A stretch of 61,338 bases of DNA from a virus (lineage: Duplodnaviria > Caudoviricetes): positions 1 through 61,338 of IMG/VR virus record IMGVR_UViG_3300036944_001020; one strand, given 5' to 3'. The notes under the pieces were generated by a model. The model saw only the letters and a program-made list of their open reading frames with translations, did no database searches and was not told the DNA's origin. This document shows positions 10,397 to 55,630 of this stretch, piece after piece (the first letter of the stretch is position 1; every line of letters begins with the position of its first letter). Made by a program: the position numbers and the translations under genes.

Positions 10397-10404
10397 TATT
10401 TATA
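10397..10404 (-). promoter_or_regulatory. T4-type late promoter
   Basis: TATAAATA on the minus strand upstream of gene 3. Confidence 0.8.
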
Positions 10405-12995: not shown

Positions 12996-13646
12996 TTATT
13001 TTGACAAACTATTCATGAATTGTTCAAACATCTGAATTTTGATGCTTTCCAATTCCCCCTTGGATGCTTTCTTTAAGGTAGCTTGGGCTTGCTCAATTTG
13101 AGTAGCCTTCCAAATACCATTTTCGCAAATCCATTCAGCAGATTCATATATGCCTTGTACAAATGCGTCTGGCGCACTTGGATCAGCAACAATGTCAATG
13201 GTTGCTAGATGAAAATCATCCTGCACTTCCATAATTCCTGCCTTAGTTTCTTTTAGAGAACCAAGCCCTCTTGAAGAAACACCTAACTTAACGCCCTCTT
13301 CGATAAACCCCTTGGCAATTTTGCCCATTGGTGTATCTAAAATCTTTGCTTTACCAATAACATCATTACCTTCAAAGCGCAAGTTTGTCATCAAATGAGA
13401 AACTTTGTCTAAGTTAATGGATGGCGTTGATGGGTGACCTAATTCGCCCAATGAACGCTTTTCGGTAATCATTTGTTGATAACGGGCAAGTTCATTTTCC
13501 ATAATGCGGCGTGGATAAACGCGACCATTGCGGTTTTGTTTATCTGCTTGCATGAAAATGCCTTCAATGAAAACGCCAACTTTGCCGTTTTCGGATTTTT
13601 CTGTTAAATAAGTAACGTCTTGTACGACTTCTGTAATTAATCTCAT
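12996..13646 (-). CDS. 21: Prohead protease gp21
   Basis: NRNGRVY, GELGHP, GVSSRGLGS and DIVADPSAPDAFV. Confidence 0.97.
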   Translation of the reverse strand: MRLITEVVQDVTYLTEKSENGKVGVFIEGIFMQADKQNRNGRVYPRRIMENELARYQQMITEKRSLGELGHPSTPSINLDKVSHLMTNLRFEGNDVIGKAKILDTPMGKIAKGFIEEGVKLGVSSRGLGSLKETKAGIMEVQDDFHLATIDIVADPSAPDAFVQGIYESAEWICENGIWKATQIEQAQATLKKASKGELESIKIQMFEQFMNSLSK

Positions 13647-14050
13647 GGTTTTAAGTAGTCCGGTAAGGTTTGAGTATCCGGCGGCAAGAAGCCAGCAGCC
13701 TTGGTAACACCAAGAATTACTGTTCCACCGGGAGTAGGAATTGTTACTTGAATATTTGCTGTTGCATTAGAATTATCTACAAATCCCGATGATTGAGCTA
13801 AATACCAATTATCATTTCCAAATAATTCCATTGTAACAGTGCCATTTCGCTGAATGCTTATTGGTGTAATAGAATTTGCAGTTGTGAAATAAATACTATT
13901 AATCGTTACACTGGTATTAGCATAACCCAAAAATGATTCATCTGATAATTTTAGATCATCATTCAAAATGATATTGGCTGTGCCAGAACCAACAAACTTA
14001 ATTACAGCTTGCTGTCTGACACGTTTTAAAATTGTTTTTGTGATTGCCAT
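13643..14050 (-). CDS. Hypothetical head-module protein, 135 aa
   Basis: ORF track; own late promoter and SD; ATGA overlap with gene 21. Confidence 0.75.
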   Translation of the reverse strand: MAITKTILKRVRQQAVIKFVGSGTANIILNDDLKLSDESFLGYANTSVTINSIYFTTANSITPISIQRNGTVTMELFGNDNWYLAQSSGFVDNSNATANIQVTIPTPGGTVILGVTKAAGFLPPDTQTLPDYLKP

Positions 14051-14092: not shown

Positions 14093-16252
14093 TTATTTTG
14101 TTATAGGTTTTACGATATATCTAACTGCACCATACTCTTGATCTCGTCTATTAGCACTTCTAGATGCGGTTTTTAAGCTGGCATGCTTACTTACAACTGC
14201 GCCAGTTTTAGAGTCTATGACCGCATGAGTTGGAGCAGGAACAAGAGTGGATTCTTTTAATTTAGCTGCTGCCTTATCCATTGAATCAAGTCTATCGCTA
14301 ATTTTTTTATCTATTTTTGCATATGCTGCATCTTTTTGAGCTTGTGTACCAGAAACCCATTTGCGAGATAAATCTCTGACATTTGTATCTGCTTTATCAA
14401 CATATGAACTATAAGTTTTCTTTGATAACTCATCAATTTGTTCAACATCTTCGTCGAGTTCTCTCGTGGATTTTAAATAATCTAAAGAAGATGTGATATA
14501 ATCTTCTGCCTTTGTTATTTTAGATTGAACCCATTCTGGAAGATTTTCATCATCTTCTAGCATATTTTTAATATCTTCTGCATTTCTACAAATAGTTTGC
14601 AGTAGAGTTTTAGCCATAGAACCTTCGTAGTCGTATTCGCCTACATCTTTAGCTTCTTTTACAGATGAATTCACTGGAACACAATTTGGAACTTCTTTTC
14701 CATTTTTTTTCTTTGTTCCAATCATTTCATACCCAGTCCAGCAAGGATCGGTATCTTTCATTTTTTTAGCTTCTTCAACAGAATCTTCCATGAATGCATG
14801 GGTATTTTTATGTTCTTTTTTCTTATTTCCGTGAGAACCGGCACCAGTGGTTGGAGCATGTTTAGCCACGAAATTGCGTGGAGTAGCACGTTGACGCAAT
14901 AATGCTGCCTTGGCACTAGCACGACCCATAGAACCTTGAGAACCTGCTATAGATGCACTAATTGCTGGCATGAATGCTTCTGCCATTTTATCTGGGGCAT
15001 CCATCCAACTCTTGGTTAAATGCATGGCAGTTAAGGGAATACCATGCTTATCTGCGTGTTTTAACGCATGAGCATTCGCTGCCGCCATTGATGTAAATGG
15101 AATCGATGATCCATTCGCATCCTTTAAACTTTTGCCATGTGCGCGGATATACCAATTGCTTTTATCAATAGAATGATTTTCATCATCTTCTCTGTATCTA
15201 GCGCCATCGACGCCACGGAAACCACGGCCTTCGTGCATTTCAGTTTCTTCGGCAAGTTTAGGAACTTTAGCGATTTTAAGAATAGATAAAACCAATGGAG
15301 CTTTTAATTCTTTATGGCGAGGAACTGCAATGTGTTGTGGAGATTTTGGATGTGTAAAAACATCATGGCTTCCAGTTGTTCTAGATAATTTCCAGCCAAG
15401 ACCTTGAATGTGGTGAGTCAGCTTGCGAGTATTACCCATACTTGCACCAACCATTTCATCTAAATCAAACTCTTTTTCTACGGCAAATACTTCTTCATTA
15501 ACTTCTTCGTTAAGTTCATATTTCTTTTTATACCATGCTGGCATTCCGTTTTTCTGTCTCCAGTAACGCACTGTGGCAGAATCATTAGCTTGATCAGTAT
15601 ATTTATTTTCAGCAGTTGTATTGTGACCCTTCATTGCTTCTGCGGCAGCGCGGGCATCTTTAGCAATGTATTCTAATTCAGCATTAGATTTTTTATGGTA
15701 TGGATGATCTTCTAATGGATGTTGCTGAGAAGGGCGACCCTCTTCTAATTCTTCAACTCCCTCAGAAAGTCTAGATTCATCTTCCATGTGTTGCATCATT
15801 TTTTTATAATGAGAATCGGCATTCTTCTGATTGCCTTTTAGCTCATGGTAATTAATTAAATGCTCATGGTGATCTGCCATATGCTCATGGAATTTCGGCA
15901 TATTGTCTTCCGACTTAGCCTTCATTGCATCAACACGCGCTTCTTCTGCACCCTTTAACCAGTCATCAGCAGTAACTTCATTGATAATTTCAATATCAAA
16001 AGATTCCGCTAAACGATCAACTTCTTCAAGATCAATTTCTAAGTTTTCATTTTGTCTTTTTGCCGCATATGCTGCACCAAGAGCCATTTGAATACGCTCT
16101 TTCTTTGACTTACCATCAAACTTTGGATTATCAGATTTAACAAAATCGTCAATCCATTTTGATGTTGGTGTCTTTGCAGTTAATACTTCATCAAGGGTCA
16201 CTGACTCTTGTACAGAATAAAATTTAGAAACTGTGTCTTTGAAGGATTTCAT
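14093..16252 (-). CDS. Modular internal head / prohead core protein with an embedded HicA-like domain
   Basis: Sits in the 67-68 position of the head cluster; MKSFKD N-terminus; many L/I/V-x-E linkers; GWKLSRTTGSHDVFTHP...VPRHKEL...SILK HicA motif. Confidence 0.75.
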   Translation of the reverse strand: MKSFKDTVSKFYSVQESVTLDEVLTAKTPTSKWIDDFVKSDNPKFDGKSKKERIQMALGAAYAAKRQNENLEIDLEEVDRLAESFDIEIINEVTADDWLKGAEEARVDAMKAKSEDNMPKFHEHMADHHEHLINYHELKGNQKNADSHYKKMMQHMEDESRLSEGVEELEEGRPSQQHPLEDHPYHKKSNAELEYIAKDARAAAEAMKGHNTTAENKYTDQANDSATVRYWRQKNGMPAWYKKKYELNEEVNEEVFAVEKEFDLDEMVGASMGNTRKLTHHIQGLGWKLSRTTGSHDVFTHPKSPQHIAVPRHKELKAPLVLSILKIAKVPKLAEETEMHEGRGFRGVDGARYREDDENHSIDKSNWYIRAHGKSLKDANGSSIPFTSMAAANAHALKHADKHGIPLTAMHLTKSWMDAPDKMAEAFMPAISASIAGSQGSMGRASAKAALLRQRATPRNFVAKHAPTTGAGSHGNKKKEHKNTHAFMEDSVEEAKKMKDTDPCWTGYEMIGTKKKNGKEVPNCVPVNSSVKEAKDVGEYDYEGSMAKTLLQTICRNAEDIKNMLEDDENLPEWVQSKITKAEDYITSSLDYLKSTRELDEDVEQIDELSKKTYSSYVDKADTNVRDLSRKWVSGTQAQKDAAYAKIDKKISDRLDSMDKAAAKLKESTLVPAPTHAVIDSKTGAVVSKHASLKTASRSANRRDQEYGAVRYIVKPITK

Positions 16253-16256
16253 TTTT

Positions 16257-16418
16257 TTACTCGTCTTTTCCTAGTGATTGTGCTACTTCTATTTTTTTGT
16301 CAGCAATTGCATCTGTTACTCTCATGGACAAGATACTTTCAATTTTCTCGGTAGCATCTGCGCCACGATTATTTAAAATATCATCTACCATGTGTTGAAT
16401 TACTTCTGATGTTTCCAT
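16257..16418 (-). CDS. 67: Prohead core protein gp67-like, 53 aa (not in the ORF track)
   Basis: Hand translation METSEVIQHMVDDILNNRGADATEKIESILSMRVTDAIADKKIEVAQSLGKDE; GGAGA SD; immediately after the portal gene. Confidence 0.8.
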   Translation of the reverse strand: METSEVIQHMVDDILNNRGADATEKIESILSMRVTDAIADKKIEVAQSLGKDE

Positions 16419-16436: not shown

Positions 16437-16444
16437 TATTTATA
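16437..16444 (-). promoter_or_regulatory. T4-type late promoter
   Basis: TATAAATA upstream of gp67 and the 719-aa gene. Confidence 0.8.
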
Positions 16445-16449
16445 TATTA

Positions 16450-17994
16450 TTATTGTGGCTGTTGCTCTTGGGGAGCCCCATCCGGTTGTTCTTGTCCTTG
16501 CAACATCATCAATGGTTCCGCTGCAATTTCTTTATCCATTGTTTCGATTTCGTCATCGGTCATTCTCAAAACATTACGCTTTACATATTTTTGACTAAAA
16601 TACGAACCAACAAATGGCTGAATTGCGGTCAAAATATCAATACGATTACGAATGCTTTCAGTTTCCTTCATTTCTTGGAAATACTGATCCTGTGCATATC
16701 TATAATGAATTTTTTCTCTGAATGAATCCCAATCAGATTCAACGATAACACCTTTAAGAACCAATTGGGTCTTCAAGATATCATCAAACATAACATTGAA
16801 TTTCTTACGAAGTCTTCCAACAAACTTAGCAAACTTCAATTCGTCACGAGTAATCTCAGTGGCACGACCAAATTGAATACCTTGTCCCGGCTGCATTCTA
16901 GACAATGGAACATTCAATGCTTGATATAGTTTCTGTTGAAAGAATTCAATATCTGCAATTTGACCCAAATTCTCGCCACCGGGCAATGTAGTAATTTCTG
17001 TACCACGACCACCTTCGCGTCTTGGCAACCAAAAATCTTCTAGCATAGACATGAATTTTCGGTCATCCCGAATTTCACCCGTTGCTGAATCATAAACAAT
17101 TTTATTGCGATAACGGGCCATAATATCTTTTAGATATTGCTCCGCTTTAATCTTTGGCAAATTACCAACGTCAATATAAAATATACGTCTTTCAGGCGCT
17201 CTTGAAATTCTATAAATTACAAGCGCATCTTCCATCATTTTAAGTTGATTCGTGGGCTTAATTGCTTTATGCAAGTGACCCAAGACTACACTACGCTCTA
17301 AATCCATCAATCCAGATGGAACAAACGTAATGGAATCCTTTGATATCTTAATCCCTTGGTTAGCAATACTATTATTCGCATTGGAATAATTTGTAGTAGT
17401 TGCCATCCCTCTGTCACTATAGATATAGAATTCTTCAATTGATTTGATGATTTCAATACCTGTAGGCATTTTCTCTTTTTTTACATCTCTGACCTTACGA
17501 ATTTTCTTGGGGTCAATCTGTCTAATTTCTACGATGCCCCTTTTAGGAGCTTTAATATCAATGATCTTTTGGAAGTATAATCTTCCATCAACATACCAGC
17601 GTTTAAACAAGTCATGTGACTTATTATTAAACTCTAGTAGACGAATCACATTGGTAAACTCTTCATTAATTGCATCTTTGATGTTTTTTGGAACATCCAA
17701 GCCATCTAAATTAATTGTAACCGCAGCTTCATCATCGACTGATGCAATTGCCTCAGTGACGATTTCATCAATGGCAGTAGCGCAGTCAGGATACATCGCG
17801 GTCTCACGGTATTTGGCAATCAAATCCGTTTCTGACTTAGCAGATGCATCCATATCCACATACGTGCCGTAGTACCCACCTGCTTGCACACTTTGGGCAC
17901 CATCATCGGGAGTGGGGGTTATGAACGATTGTGTTCGTAACCCATCCACTTTTTCATCGTTTTTGCGATTTATTGTAAAACCAAATAATTCCAT
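16450..17994 (-). CDS. 20: Portal protein gp20
   Basis: YRISRAPERRIFYIDVGNLPK and EDFWLPRREGGRGTEITTLPGG. Confidence 0.99.
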   Translation of the reverse strand: MELFGFTINRKNDEKVDGLRTQSFITPTPDDGAQSVQAGGYYGTYVDMDASAKSETDLIAKYRETAMYPDCATAIDEIVTEAIASVDDEAAVTINLDGLDVPKNIKDAINEEFTNVIRLLEFNNKSHDLFKRWYVDGRLYFQKIIDIKAPKRGIVEIRQIDPKKIRKVRDVKKEKMPTGIEIIKSIEEFYIYSDRGMATTTNYSNANNSIANQGIKISKDSITFVPSGLMDLERSVVLGHLHKAIKPTNQLKMMEDALVIYRISRAPERRIFYIDVGNLPKIKAEQYLKDIMARYRNKIVYDSATGEIRDDRKFMSMLEDFWLPRREGGRGTEITTLPGGENLGQIADIEFFQQKLYQALNVPLSRMQPGQGIQFGRATEITRDELKFAKFVGRLRKKFNVMFDDILKTQLVLKGVIVESDWDSFREKIHYRYAQDQYFQEMKETESIRNRIDILTAIQPFVGSYFSQKYVKRNVLRMTDDEIETMDKEIAAEPLMMLQGQEQPDGAPQEQQPQ

Positions 17995-55084: not shown

Positions 55085-55498
55085 TGATTGGTTAATTCTG
55101 TTACGAGGAAAACCAATCGAATACCCTAAGCGGCGTTTAGGCTGCTAATGCGAACTGTGTGTCGTTTGCGTTTACATTTTTTTACTGTTAACGACGAGAT
55201 ATGTCGAGTTGTCCATGCGTCTACTTGTTGCCCTGTCGAAACTAGTTCAGCCCCATCAAAAACAAATTAAATAATGGTATCTTCTGCTACAACAAAAATT
55301 GCCCATTTTGGGTGTTTTTTTGAAAGCATTTCTGCCGTTTTTATCAAATGATCTTTACTTTTACTTCTTTCCTTTACATAGGTATTGTAAGGAGTTTTTA
55401 CTACCATTTTATATTTCATAATGTGCTTTTGGTGGAGCTGGCGGGTACTGCCCCCGCTTCCAGAACCATTTTTGATTTACTTCATACAACTATAACTC
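55085..55498 (-). ncRNA. ssrA: Circularly permuted (two-piece) tmRNA
   Basis: The acceptor piece (about 55498-55430) ends GCGGG-GGCAGUA-CCCGC-CAGCUCCACCA. The coding piece starts GGGGCUG at 55254. The acceptor stem has G3.U70. Tag ORF 55169-55137 encodes ANDTQFALAA*. Confidence 0.93.
55267..55419 (-). CDS. 50-aa ORF inside the tmRNA intervening segment
   Basis: Hand translation MKYKMVVKTPYNTYVKERSKSKDHLIKTAEMLSKKHPKWAIFVVAEDTII*; no SD. Confidence 0.5.
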   Translation of the reverse strand: MKYKMVVKTPYNTYVKERSKSKDHLIKTAEMLSKKHPKWAIFVVAEDTII

Positions 55499-55630
55499 TT
55501 AACTAACCGCTTCCGTATGTTTACCTTTAAAACTTTTTTTCAGTATTTTAAGCCAAATTGCTTTAGCTTTTACAGAATTATGTTTTAATTCGGCGCGGTT
55601 TAGTTTTAATATTAGTTTTTTAACTTTCAT
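55499..55630 (-). CDS. 43-aa basic peptide, probably leaderless
   Basis: Hand translation MKVKKLILKLNRAELKHNSVKAKAIWLKILKKSFKGKHTEAVS*; ATG lies 6 nt after the -10 box. Confidence 0.65.
   Translation of the reverse strand: MKVKKLILKLNRAELKHNSVKAKAIWLKILKKSFKGKHTEAVS

Follow-up and report, generated by a model that had tools for sequence, protein, structure and literature searches.

The stretch of DNA analysed here, called the window below, is an entire virus record of 61,338 bases (IMGVR_UViG_3300036944_001020, Caudoviricetes) that is rated 36% complete. Its minus strand carries a long open reading frame (ORF), P0001, whose 719-amino-acid product contains a domain of the HicA toxin family set between two short joints that resemble cleavage sites of a T4-type prohead protease. 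The central features of the locus are as follows.

14093-16252, minus strand: P0001, a late ORF of 719 aa and putative modular 'cargo polyprotein' (ORF translation, BLAST coverage and module hidden Markov models, HMMs)
15455-15466, minus strand: upstream joint D-L-D-E, residues 263-266, of the form L-x-E; cut predicted after E266
15248-15454, minus strand: HicA module and predicted cleavage product, residues 267-335, 69 aa, isoelectric point (pI) 10.8 (Pfam, PDB sequence matches, AlphaFold2 and Foldseek)
15365-15373, minus strand: codons of G294-S295-H296, in the HicA beta1-beta2 turn (alignment to 4c26, conservation in alignments)
15248-15259, minus strand: downstream joint K-L-A-E, residues 332-335, of the form L-x-E; cut predicted after E335

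A preliminary description of this DNA had proposed a HicA-like domain with a retained catalytic histidine, on the assumption that it lay on the plus strand. The peptide that it quoted corresponds to residues 275-329 of P0001 (nt 15266-15430) and is encoded on the minus strand, while the assignment to HicA has been borne out by a profile search, by matches to PDB sequences and by a fold match. For example, the stretch matches the Pfam family HicA_toxin (PF07927) over profile positions 2-57 of 58, with an E-value of 3.3e-11 and a score of 43.6 bits where the curated cut-off is 27, and a six-frame HicA family search of the whole record gives 48.2 bits. The HicA part of P0001 also matches the PHROGs family phrog_353, 'toxin' (E 2.7e-12), and a phmmer search against PDB sequences returned HicA chains only, including 4c26_A (E 2.5e-7) and 6g26_E (E 2.3e-6). 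Furthermore, an AlphaFold2 model of a 76-residue stretch with the module, built from a 37-row alignment (predicted local distance difference test, pLDDT, 76.6; predicted template modelling score, pTM, 0.61), shows the alpha-beta-beta-beta-alpha order (H14-23, E27-32, E35-40, E43-50, H57-67) of a fold resembling a double-stranded-RNA-binding domain (dsRBD). The top seven Foldseek matches of this model in the PDB are all HicA (6g26, 4c26, 4p78, 5yrz, 1whz and 6hpb), and the best of them, 6g26_E, has a target-normalised TM-score of 0.86-0.88 and a root-mean-square deviation of 1.4 A over 59 columns.

The residues on which HicA toxicity depends are conserved as well. Mutagenesis of B. pseudomallei HicA has shown that toxicity needs Gly22 and His24, the substitution S23A being neutral (Butt et al., 2014; PMC3969222). 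Alignment to 4c26, an H24A mutant chain, sets G294-S295-H296 of P0001 opposite G-S-A, with G294 at Gly22 and H296 (the histidine of 'GSH', codon at nt 15365-15367) at the position of H24A. This glycine and histidine are invariant in all 37 aligned phage and free-standing HicAs (alignment A3) and in a second alignment (A2), which also holds the histidine of the 'PRH' or 'P-x-H' motif, H313, invariant; the G-x-H pattern is present in 118 of 121 family proteins. Judged by sequence and by the model, the stretch is a genuine HicA toxin-type domain, and the residues that it keeps indicate that it is probably catalytically competent as a dsRBD-like RNase. It shares with the type II HicAs (PF07927; B. 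pseudomallei 4c26 and 6g26, E. coli 6hpb) the same fold, with TM-scores of up to 0.88, the Gly-x-His turn and the 'P-x-H' histidine, and its Foldseek identity to the B. pseudomallei chains is 41-42%. It differs from them in being part of a late phage protein of 719 aa, where joints of protease type flank it, and no hicB was found near or far.

The missing antitoxin had been pointed out in the preliminary description and was looked for more widely. Neither HicB family (PF15919, PF05534) has a match at E ≤ 1 in the window, although this alone proves little because the record is 36% complete. Two relatives (G001, 172 kb; G003, 214 kb) are complete, have terminal repeats and encode one HicA module each, and neither HicB family rises above its cut-off in them, the sole match scoring 15 bits and containing three internal stop codons. 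Overall, searches of the window and of four related records with the two HicB Pfam families produced no usable match; their reach covers these families and not a non-homologous neutraliser. The locus thus departs from a HicAB module in two respects, as no cognate hicB was detected and HicA is not a small stand-alone gene. Single-gene systems in which HicA and HicB are fused (classes 11-13 in PMC10865869) likewise place HicA in a larger polypeptide and raise the same question of regulation in cis; unlike them, the P0001 ORF contains no HicB domain detectable with Pfam and offers no fixed partner in cis. A neighbouring module was considered as a cis-antitoxin and rejected, as HicA has many different neighbours and the whole-protein model has no confident packing between modules (pTM 0.29); an Atlas look-up of residues 336-490 also gave no lead to one. 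Since HicA sits beside many different modules, or stands almost alone, a fixed partner in cis is not indicated.

The preliminary description had also considered that the module might be a decoy. In that case it would bind a host factor rather than RNA, for instance host HicB or the sensor of a HicAB-type abortive-infection system. Systems with HicA domains have indeed been proposed as anti-phage defences (PMC10865869), and phages often carry toxin-antitoxin mimics (PMC11594946, section 5.2), but a phage would gain from mimicking the antitoxin and not the toxin. Moreover, the catalytic residues are conserved and the data point to no binding partner. No result speaks for this idea, which we consider highly improbable.

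Comparison with relatives defines what kind of protein carries the domain. A database search with P0001 scored 8000 candidates, of which 1234 were relatives at E ≤ 1e-3; PF07927 is present in 117 of the 120 listed, and their lengths are 400-820 aa. BLAST alignments of distant relatives cover P0001 in blocks (B at about residues 168-250, HicA at 262-340, D at 500-527 and C at 529-601), and the rest of the protein is common only to P0002-P0004 and a few other proteins. The order along P0001 is an N-terminal helical region, B, HicA, a private region, D, C and a private C-terminal region, in which the modules other than HicA are located as follows.

15506-15739, minus strand: module B (GRPSQ...WYKKKY), residues 172-249, the most widespread module of the family
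14675-14749, minus strand: module D, with the Cys motif DPCW...PNCVP, residues 502-526
14450-14647, minus strand: module C (EYDYEG...LPEWVQSKIT...), residues 536-601, with V-K-E before it and L-D-E after it

HicA is the sole enzyme domain in P0001 that Pfam and PHROGs recognise, the other modules being small and unannotated. Module B has no Pfam match, and an Atlas look-up of residues 168-252 was without a lead. HMMs for six modules were built from the family and run over all ORFs of 83 related viral loci. At least one module occurs in 82 of these loci and HicA in 37, in 25 architectures such as HicA-G-C-B-E, E-C-B, C-E-HicA-G and D-HicA, beside B-HicA-D-C in the window; HicA also stands almost alone in ORFs of 180-204 aa. 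At closer range, P0001-P0004 are collinear and 83-88% identical in aligned columns, and they differ by clean insertions of whole modules, one deletion and one replacement; module C, for instance, is missing from P0002-P0004 as one clean block. Among cultured phages (a collection of 50,697 records), tblastn of P0001 matched only modules D and C, in hypothetical proteins of cyanophages. Sequence comparison thus indicates that the carrier is a string of exchangeable modules, a protease-jointed cargo polyprotein and not a protein of the head shell. The 'head protein' of the preliminary description therefore gives way to a shuffled multi-module polyprotein, whose gene lies outside the head cluster in most relatives.

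The HicA module was also traced beyond these loci. A phmmer search with the 76-residue module over 1.84 billion cluster representatives (50% identity) gave 164 matches at E ≤ 1e-3. The best of these, down to about E 1e-8, are mostly proteins of 200-1100 aa that match from the joint onward, and the lower part of the list is mostly canonical HicAs of about 60-100 aa with 35-56% identity. One predicted protein of 69 aa (P0122) is 94% identical to the module in the window, starts at the methionine after the joint and has a different tail; it is either a free-standing copy or a fragment of a gene call.

The residues directly before five of the module types are nearly constant. The flanks named in the preliminary description, DLDE and KLAEE, are present at residues 263-266 and 332-336, and equivalent joints were counted as the copies that anchor patterns located among the 121 family proteins:

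Joint before HicA: 116 copies; Glu at -1 in 116; at -3 Leu 110, Met 3, Ile 3
Joint before B: 119 copies; Glu at -1 in 119; at -3 Leu 114, Ile 2, Val 2, Met 1
Joint before C: 118 copies; Glu at -1 in 110 (Asp in 7); at -3 Ile 83, Val 19, Met 8
Joint before E: 97 copies; Glu at -1 in 97; at -3 Leu 89, Ile 4, Phe 4
Joint before G: 92 copies; Glu at -1 in 91; at -3 Ile 83, Leu 3, Met 3

Module D, with 14 copies only, has no such joint pattern. In the related loci a Leu/Ile-x-Glu motif stands directly before all 37 HicA modules, and in the 27 rows of alignment A2 E266 is invariant and E335 is kept in at least 90%. This is the published cleavage motif of the T4 protease gp21, L/I-X-E (PMC9026906, section 2.5), and the flanking DLDE and KLAE are therefore no accident. 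Within the unique HicA cores and B cores the motif is absent, against expectations of 6.2 and 17.3 occurrences, respectively. In the whole-protein model, all joints defined by comparison fall in segments of pLDDT below 50, the downstream joint within residues 331-376. Among window ORFs of at least 150 aa, P0001 is the sole one with at least two extended acidic joints, of which it has six, and none of the others has a T4-like leader or repeated joints.

The enzyme that would cut these joints is encoded nearby.

12996-13646, minus strand: prohead maturation protease of gp21 type, the presumed processing enzyme (phrog_207, E 1.9e-76; 43% identity to T4 gp21 over 148 aa)

A protease of this type is encoded in all five related records tested, at 50-53% identity. 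In a BLASTP alignment, moreover, the major capsid protein of the window has L-F-E-T opposite the L-T-E-A that ends the 65-residue propeptide of T4 gp23. Cutting P0001 at its 13 Leu/Ile-x-Glu sites would yield fragments that include residues 267-335, a product of 69 aa with a pI of 10.8, while solved HicA chains have 57-70 aa; the predicted fragment thus has normal toxin length. Other modules are basic too.

The charge of these fragments also fits a different role, close to the dsRNA binder that the preliminary description had named as an alternative. The HicA fold would then serve as a small basic nucleic-acid-binding module, packed and released with the DNA like the basic internal proteins of T4 and having no part as an RNase. 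The known HicA fold, dsRBD-like and positively charged (PMC3969222), would suit such a binder, as would the lack of enzyme signatures in most neighbouring modules. However, a pure binder would not need the glycine and histidine that toxicity requires, and these are invariant in 37 of 37 sequences, in a pattern kept by 118 of 121 proteins, together with an invariant H313. We regard a non-catalytic role as unlikely.

T4 loads its internal proteins through short N-terminal leaders, of which the first 10 residues suffice, residues 4 and 7 acting in targeting and residues 8 and 10 in processing (PMC9026906, section 2.6). T4 ipII and ipIII start with MKTYQEFIAE, and several relatives of P0001 have comparable leaders of 9-10 residues before HicA, clearer than the one in the window. 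For example, a 180-codon ORF in a complete 214-kb genome (L032) reads MKSFTQFINE, then a joint, then HicA; P0163 has MKSFNQFREELQIDE followed by HicA; and four small proteins have ML[TS]F[KL]EFI.E followed by HicA. In L101 a stop codon lies just before the methionine of a 74-codon ORF, so that leader and HicA form a separate gene there. Against cultured phages, the small leader-HicA protein P0203 matched only a YcfA protein of a Bifidobacterium phage, at 28.8% identity; a direct locus search with P0203 gave no match, and an alignment query gave six loci. A 467-aa polyprotein (L098:5419-6822) has the leader MKNFKEFLEE and, right after its HicA module, a second leader-like stretch, MLSFKEFITE, which raises the question of whether leader-like decapeptides also act inside chains.

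The gene neighbourhood of P0001 is that of a T4-type head. The genes around it are all on the minus strand and in T4 order: small and large terminase, sheath, tube, portal, a 53-aa ORF, P0001, a 135-aa ORF, prohead protease, scaffold and major capsid protein. P0001 lies between portal and protease, where T4 has the core genes 67 and 68. The following further features belong to this region.

16450-17994, minus strand: portal protein gene, gp20 type (phrog_213, E 7.4e-205)
16257-16418, minus strand: 53-aa ORF at the position of T4 gene 67 (phrog_683), its stop 4 nt before the start codon of the polyprotein
16437-16444, minus strand: TATAAATA core, upstream of the gp67-like ORF and the polyprotein ORF
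16187-16252, minus strand: N-terminal leader MKSFKDTVSKFYSVQESVTLDE, residues 1-22 of P0001, a possible capsid-targeting propeptide that ends in the first L-x-E

The octamer TATAAATA, taken to be a T4-type late-promoter core, has 23 copies in the window, where shuffles give 10.7 +/- 3.5. Of the 23 copies, 20 are on the minus strand, for example those at 10397, 12981, 14082, 16437, 18024 and 20612, and many stand immediately before structural genes.

Relatives differ in what they keep between portal and protease. The closest cultured phages by portal protein, Methylophilales phage Melnitz and Pelagibacter phage Mosig (55-56% identity), have small ORFs only in this gap. In a closer relative (L003:1645-4417) the gap holds three ORFs, one of 531 aa, one of 268 aa that contains module C and one with DUF5856, and no HicA. 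This interval appears to be a hot spot at which cargo genes vary. A conserved ORF of about 125-135 aa starting MAIT... (window 13643-14050, minus strand; L003:4429-4803) lies immediately upstream of the gene for the protease; it has no PHROG or Pfam match and may be a lineage-specific prohead core or decoration protein.

Taken together, the identity of the domain, the lack of HicB and the conserved gp21-type joints make a toxin that is silent by fusion, released at head maturation and injected the best reading of this locus. This was also the core of the preliminary description, and the true HicA domain, its conserved glycine and histidine, the missing HicB and the joints all speak for it; its carrier (a head protein), its argument from a tmRNA and its decoy alternative were not supported. 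In more detail, the 719-aa protein would be made late, together with the head genes, and would enter the prohead core as a polyprotein. There, a gp21-type protease would cut after the glutamate of the Leu/Ile-x-Glu joints that bound the modules, and one product would be a 69-residue basic HicA of normal toxin size. This fragment would stay in the head with the DNA and be ejected into the next host, where it would most likely cleave host RNA early in infection, similar to the delivery of Alt and internal proteins by T4. The part of the HicB antitoxin would then fall to the polyprotein context and to enclosure in the capsid. For the chain from prohead loading through cutting at the joints to delivery of free HicA into the next host, we estimate a probability of roughly 0.55. 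The step in which the fragment acts as an RNase on arrival is held more tentatively, at somewhat short of even odds.

Several observations weigh against this reading. No result explains how an active RNase would stay harmless to late phage mRNA before it is loaded. The motif alone is no proof of a cut: module C keeps internal L-P-E and L-A-E, 138 sites in the family where 51 are expected, and the enrichment in P0001 itself is modest (13 sites against 6.3 +/- 2.3, with 14 of 2000 shuffles having as many). The model of the whole protein is weak (pLDDT 55.6, pTM 0.29), and only 8 of the 13 motif sites lie in segments of pLDDT below 50, which span 47% of the chain. In addition, the family counts come from related, partly redundant sequences and are not independent events, and none of the cultured phages in the collection of 50,697 records has the HicA part. 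The leader in the window (MKSF...) is not a T4-like decapeptide; its likeness to ipII and ipIII is weak and confined to the first four residues, and its first L-x-E comes at residue 22. Finally, the HicA polyprotein gene of the majority clade is not part of the head cluster; its neighbours there are a cytidylyltransferase/Zeta-like-kinase ORF, an ORF with DUF6321 and the genes of a phrog_1645 virion structural protein, an endolysin and a primase, a neighbourhood that matches, by annotated product names, a region of cyanophage S-WAM2.

The last two points would fit a late effector that is never packaged and acts in the cytoplasm of the producing cell, for example on host or defence transcripts, with the joints serving as flexible linkers and recombination seams; recombination alone could explain why modules are exchanged exactly at the joints. 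The joints themselves argue otherwise: in five module types and in many contexts they retain Leu/Ile at P3 and Glu at P1 exactly as in the gp21 motif, and the motif is depleted in the HicA and B cores. Repeats at the DNA level are not found at the joints of this gene, where a search within P0001 gave short, chance-like matches only. T4-like targeting decapeptides precede HicA in relatives, and phage mRNA would also be a target of an RNase left unrestrained at a late stage of infection. A cytoplasmic role is accordingly considered quite improbable.

In the majority clade, there is an ORF of 800-900 aa two to three genes upstream of the gene for the HicA polyprotein (L010:320-3019, L026:242-2665). 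This ORF combines a cytidylyltransferase with a Zeta-toxin-like/AAA_33 kinase and with other parts that have no annotation. It is followed by the DUF6321 ORF, which starts with MKSFKQLMDE, and both look like further cargo-type proteins.

Delivery of a processed HicA would extend the principle of the T4 internal proteins, in a new form, to the toxin of a toxin-antitoxin system. T4 delivers the enzyme Alt and its internal proteins into the host (PMC9026906, sections 2.3-2.6). The likeness to IPI, IPII, IPIII and Alt comprises the gp21-type protease, cargo bounded by L/I-x-E, T4-like leaders in relatives and the late head-gene location behind TATAAATA. In contrast to T4, which tags one protein per gene, many unrelated modules share one ORF here and are reshuffled, the cargo is a toxin-antitoxin-type RNase, and its packaging is conjectural. 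A second parallel is provided by the polyvalent proteins (Iyer et al., 2017; PMC5512222), which belong to mobile elements, combine several domains and are thought to enter the recipient with the DNA; the modules of P0001 are mostly tiny by comparison and would be processed by a separate head-maturation protease at a fixed motif. The accessible text of the catalogue of 14 HicA genetic contexts (Gerdes, 2024; PMC10865869) lists none that is a phage polyprotein, and a HicAB review, in its available sections, treats phage HicAB only as toxin-antitoxin pairs (PMC11594946). Our literature search found no published description of HicA in a phage capsid polyprotein.

If the reading is correct, capsid confinement and polyprotein embedding would be a new way to tame a toxin in the antitoxin's place, and the RNase would represent a new class of virion-delivered effector, few of which are on record, with T4 Alt and IPI foremost among them. 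By portal protein, the nearest cultured phages have a Methylophilales strain and Pelagibacter ubique as hosts, and the family may therefore influence the early phase of infection in ocean bacteria that are very abundant. A joint of fixed form, L/I-x-E, would also provide a simple rule for predicting packaged phage cargo from sequence alone. A more general picture can be drawn, in which abundant marine T4-like phages would use a toxin free of any antitoxin: HicA would be an inert link in a chain, freed only in the sealed capsid, and it would enter the host before or together with the genome to act as a first-strike RNase on host transcripts, and the joint would be a universal socket for swapping modules. 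This picture is speculative and, in its full form, rather doubtful.

The window also encodes a transfer-messenger RNA (tmRNA), a permuted two-piece molecule of alpha type at 55087-55546 (minus strand). It was identified with Rfam, the family tmRNA_permuted (RF04321) scoring 119.5 bits against a gathering score of 47 at 55137-55491 and RF01849 scoring 68.1 bits, while ARAGORN reported no tmRNA in the window. The preliminary description had linked a phage tmRNA to HicA, reasoning that cleaved mRNAs would create a need for it. The tmRNA itself is present as stated. Its dependence on HicA is contradicted by the relatives: the tmRNA family occurs in all five related phage records examined, and HicA is missing from three of them (G005, Melnitz and Mosig). 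The presence of tmRNA in relatives without HicA indicates a trait of the lineage and not a companion of the toxin domain, and it perhaps also hints at an alphaproteobacterial-type host.

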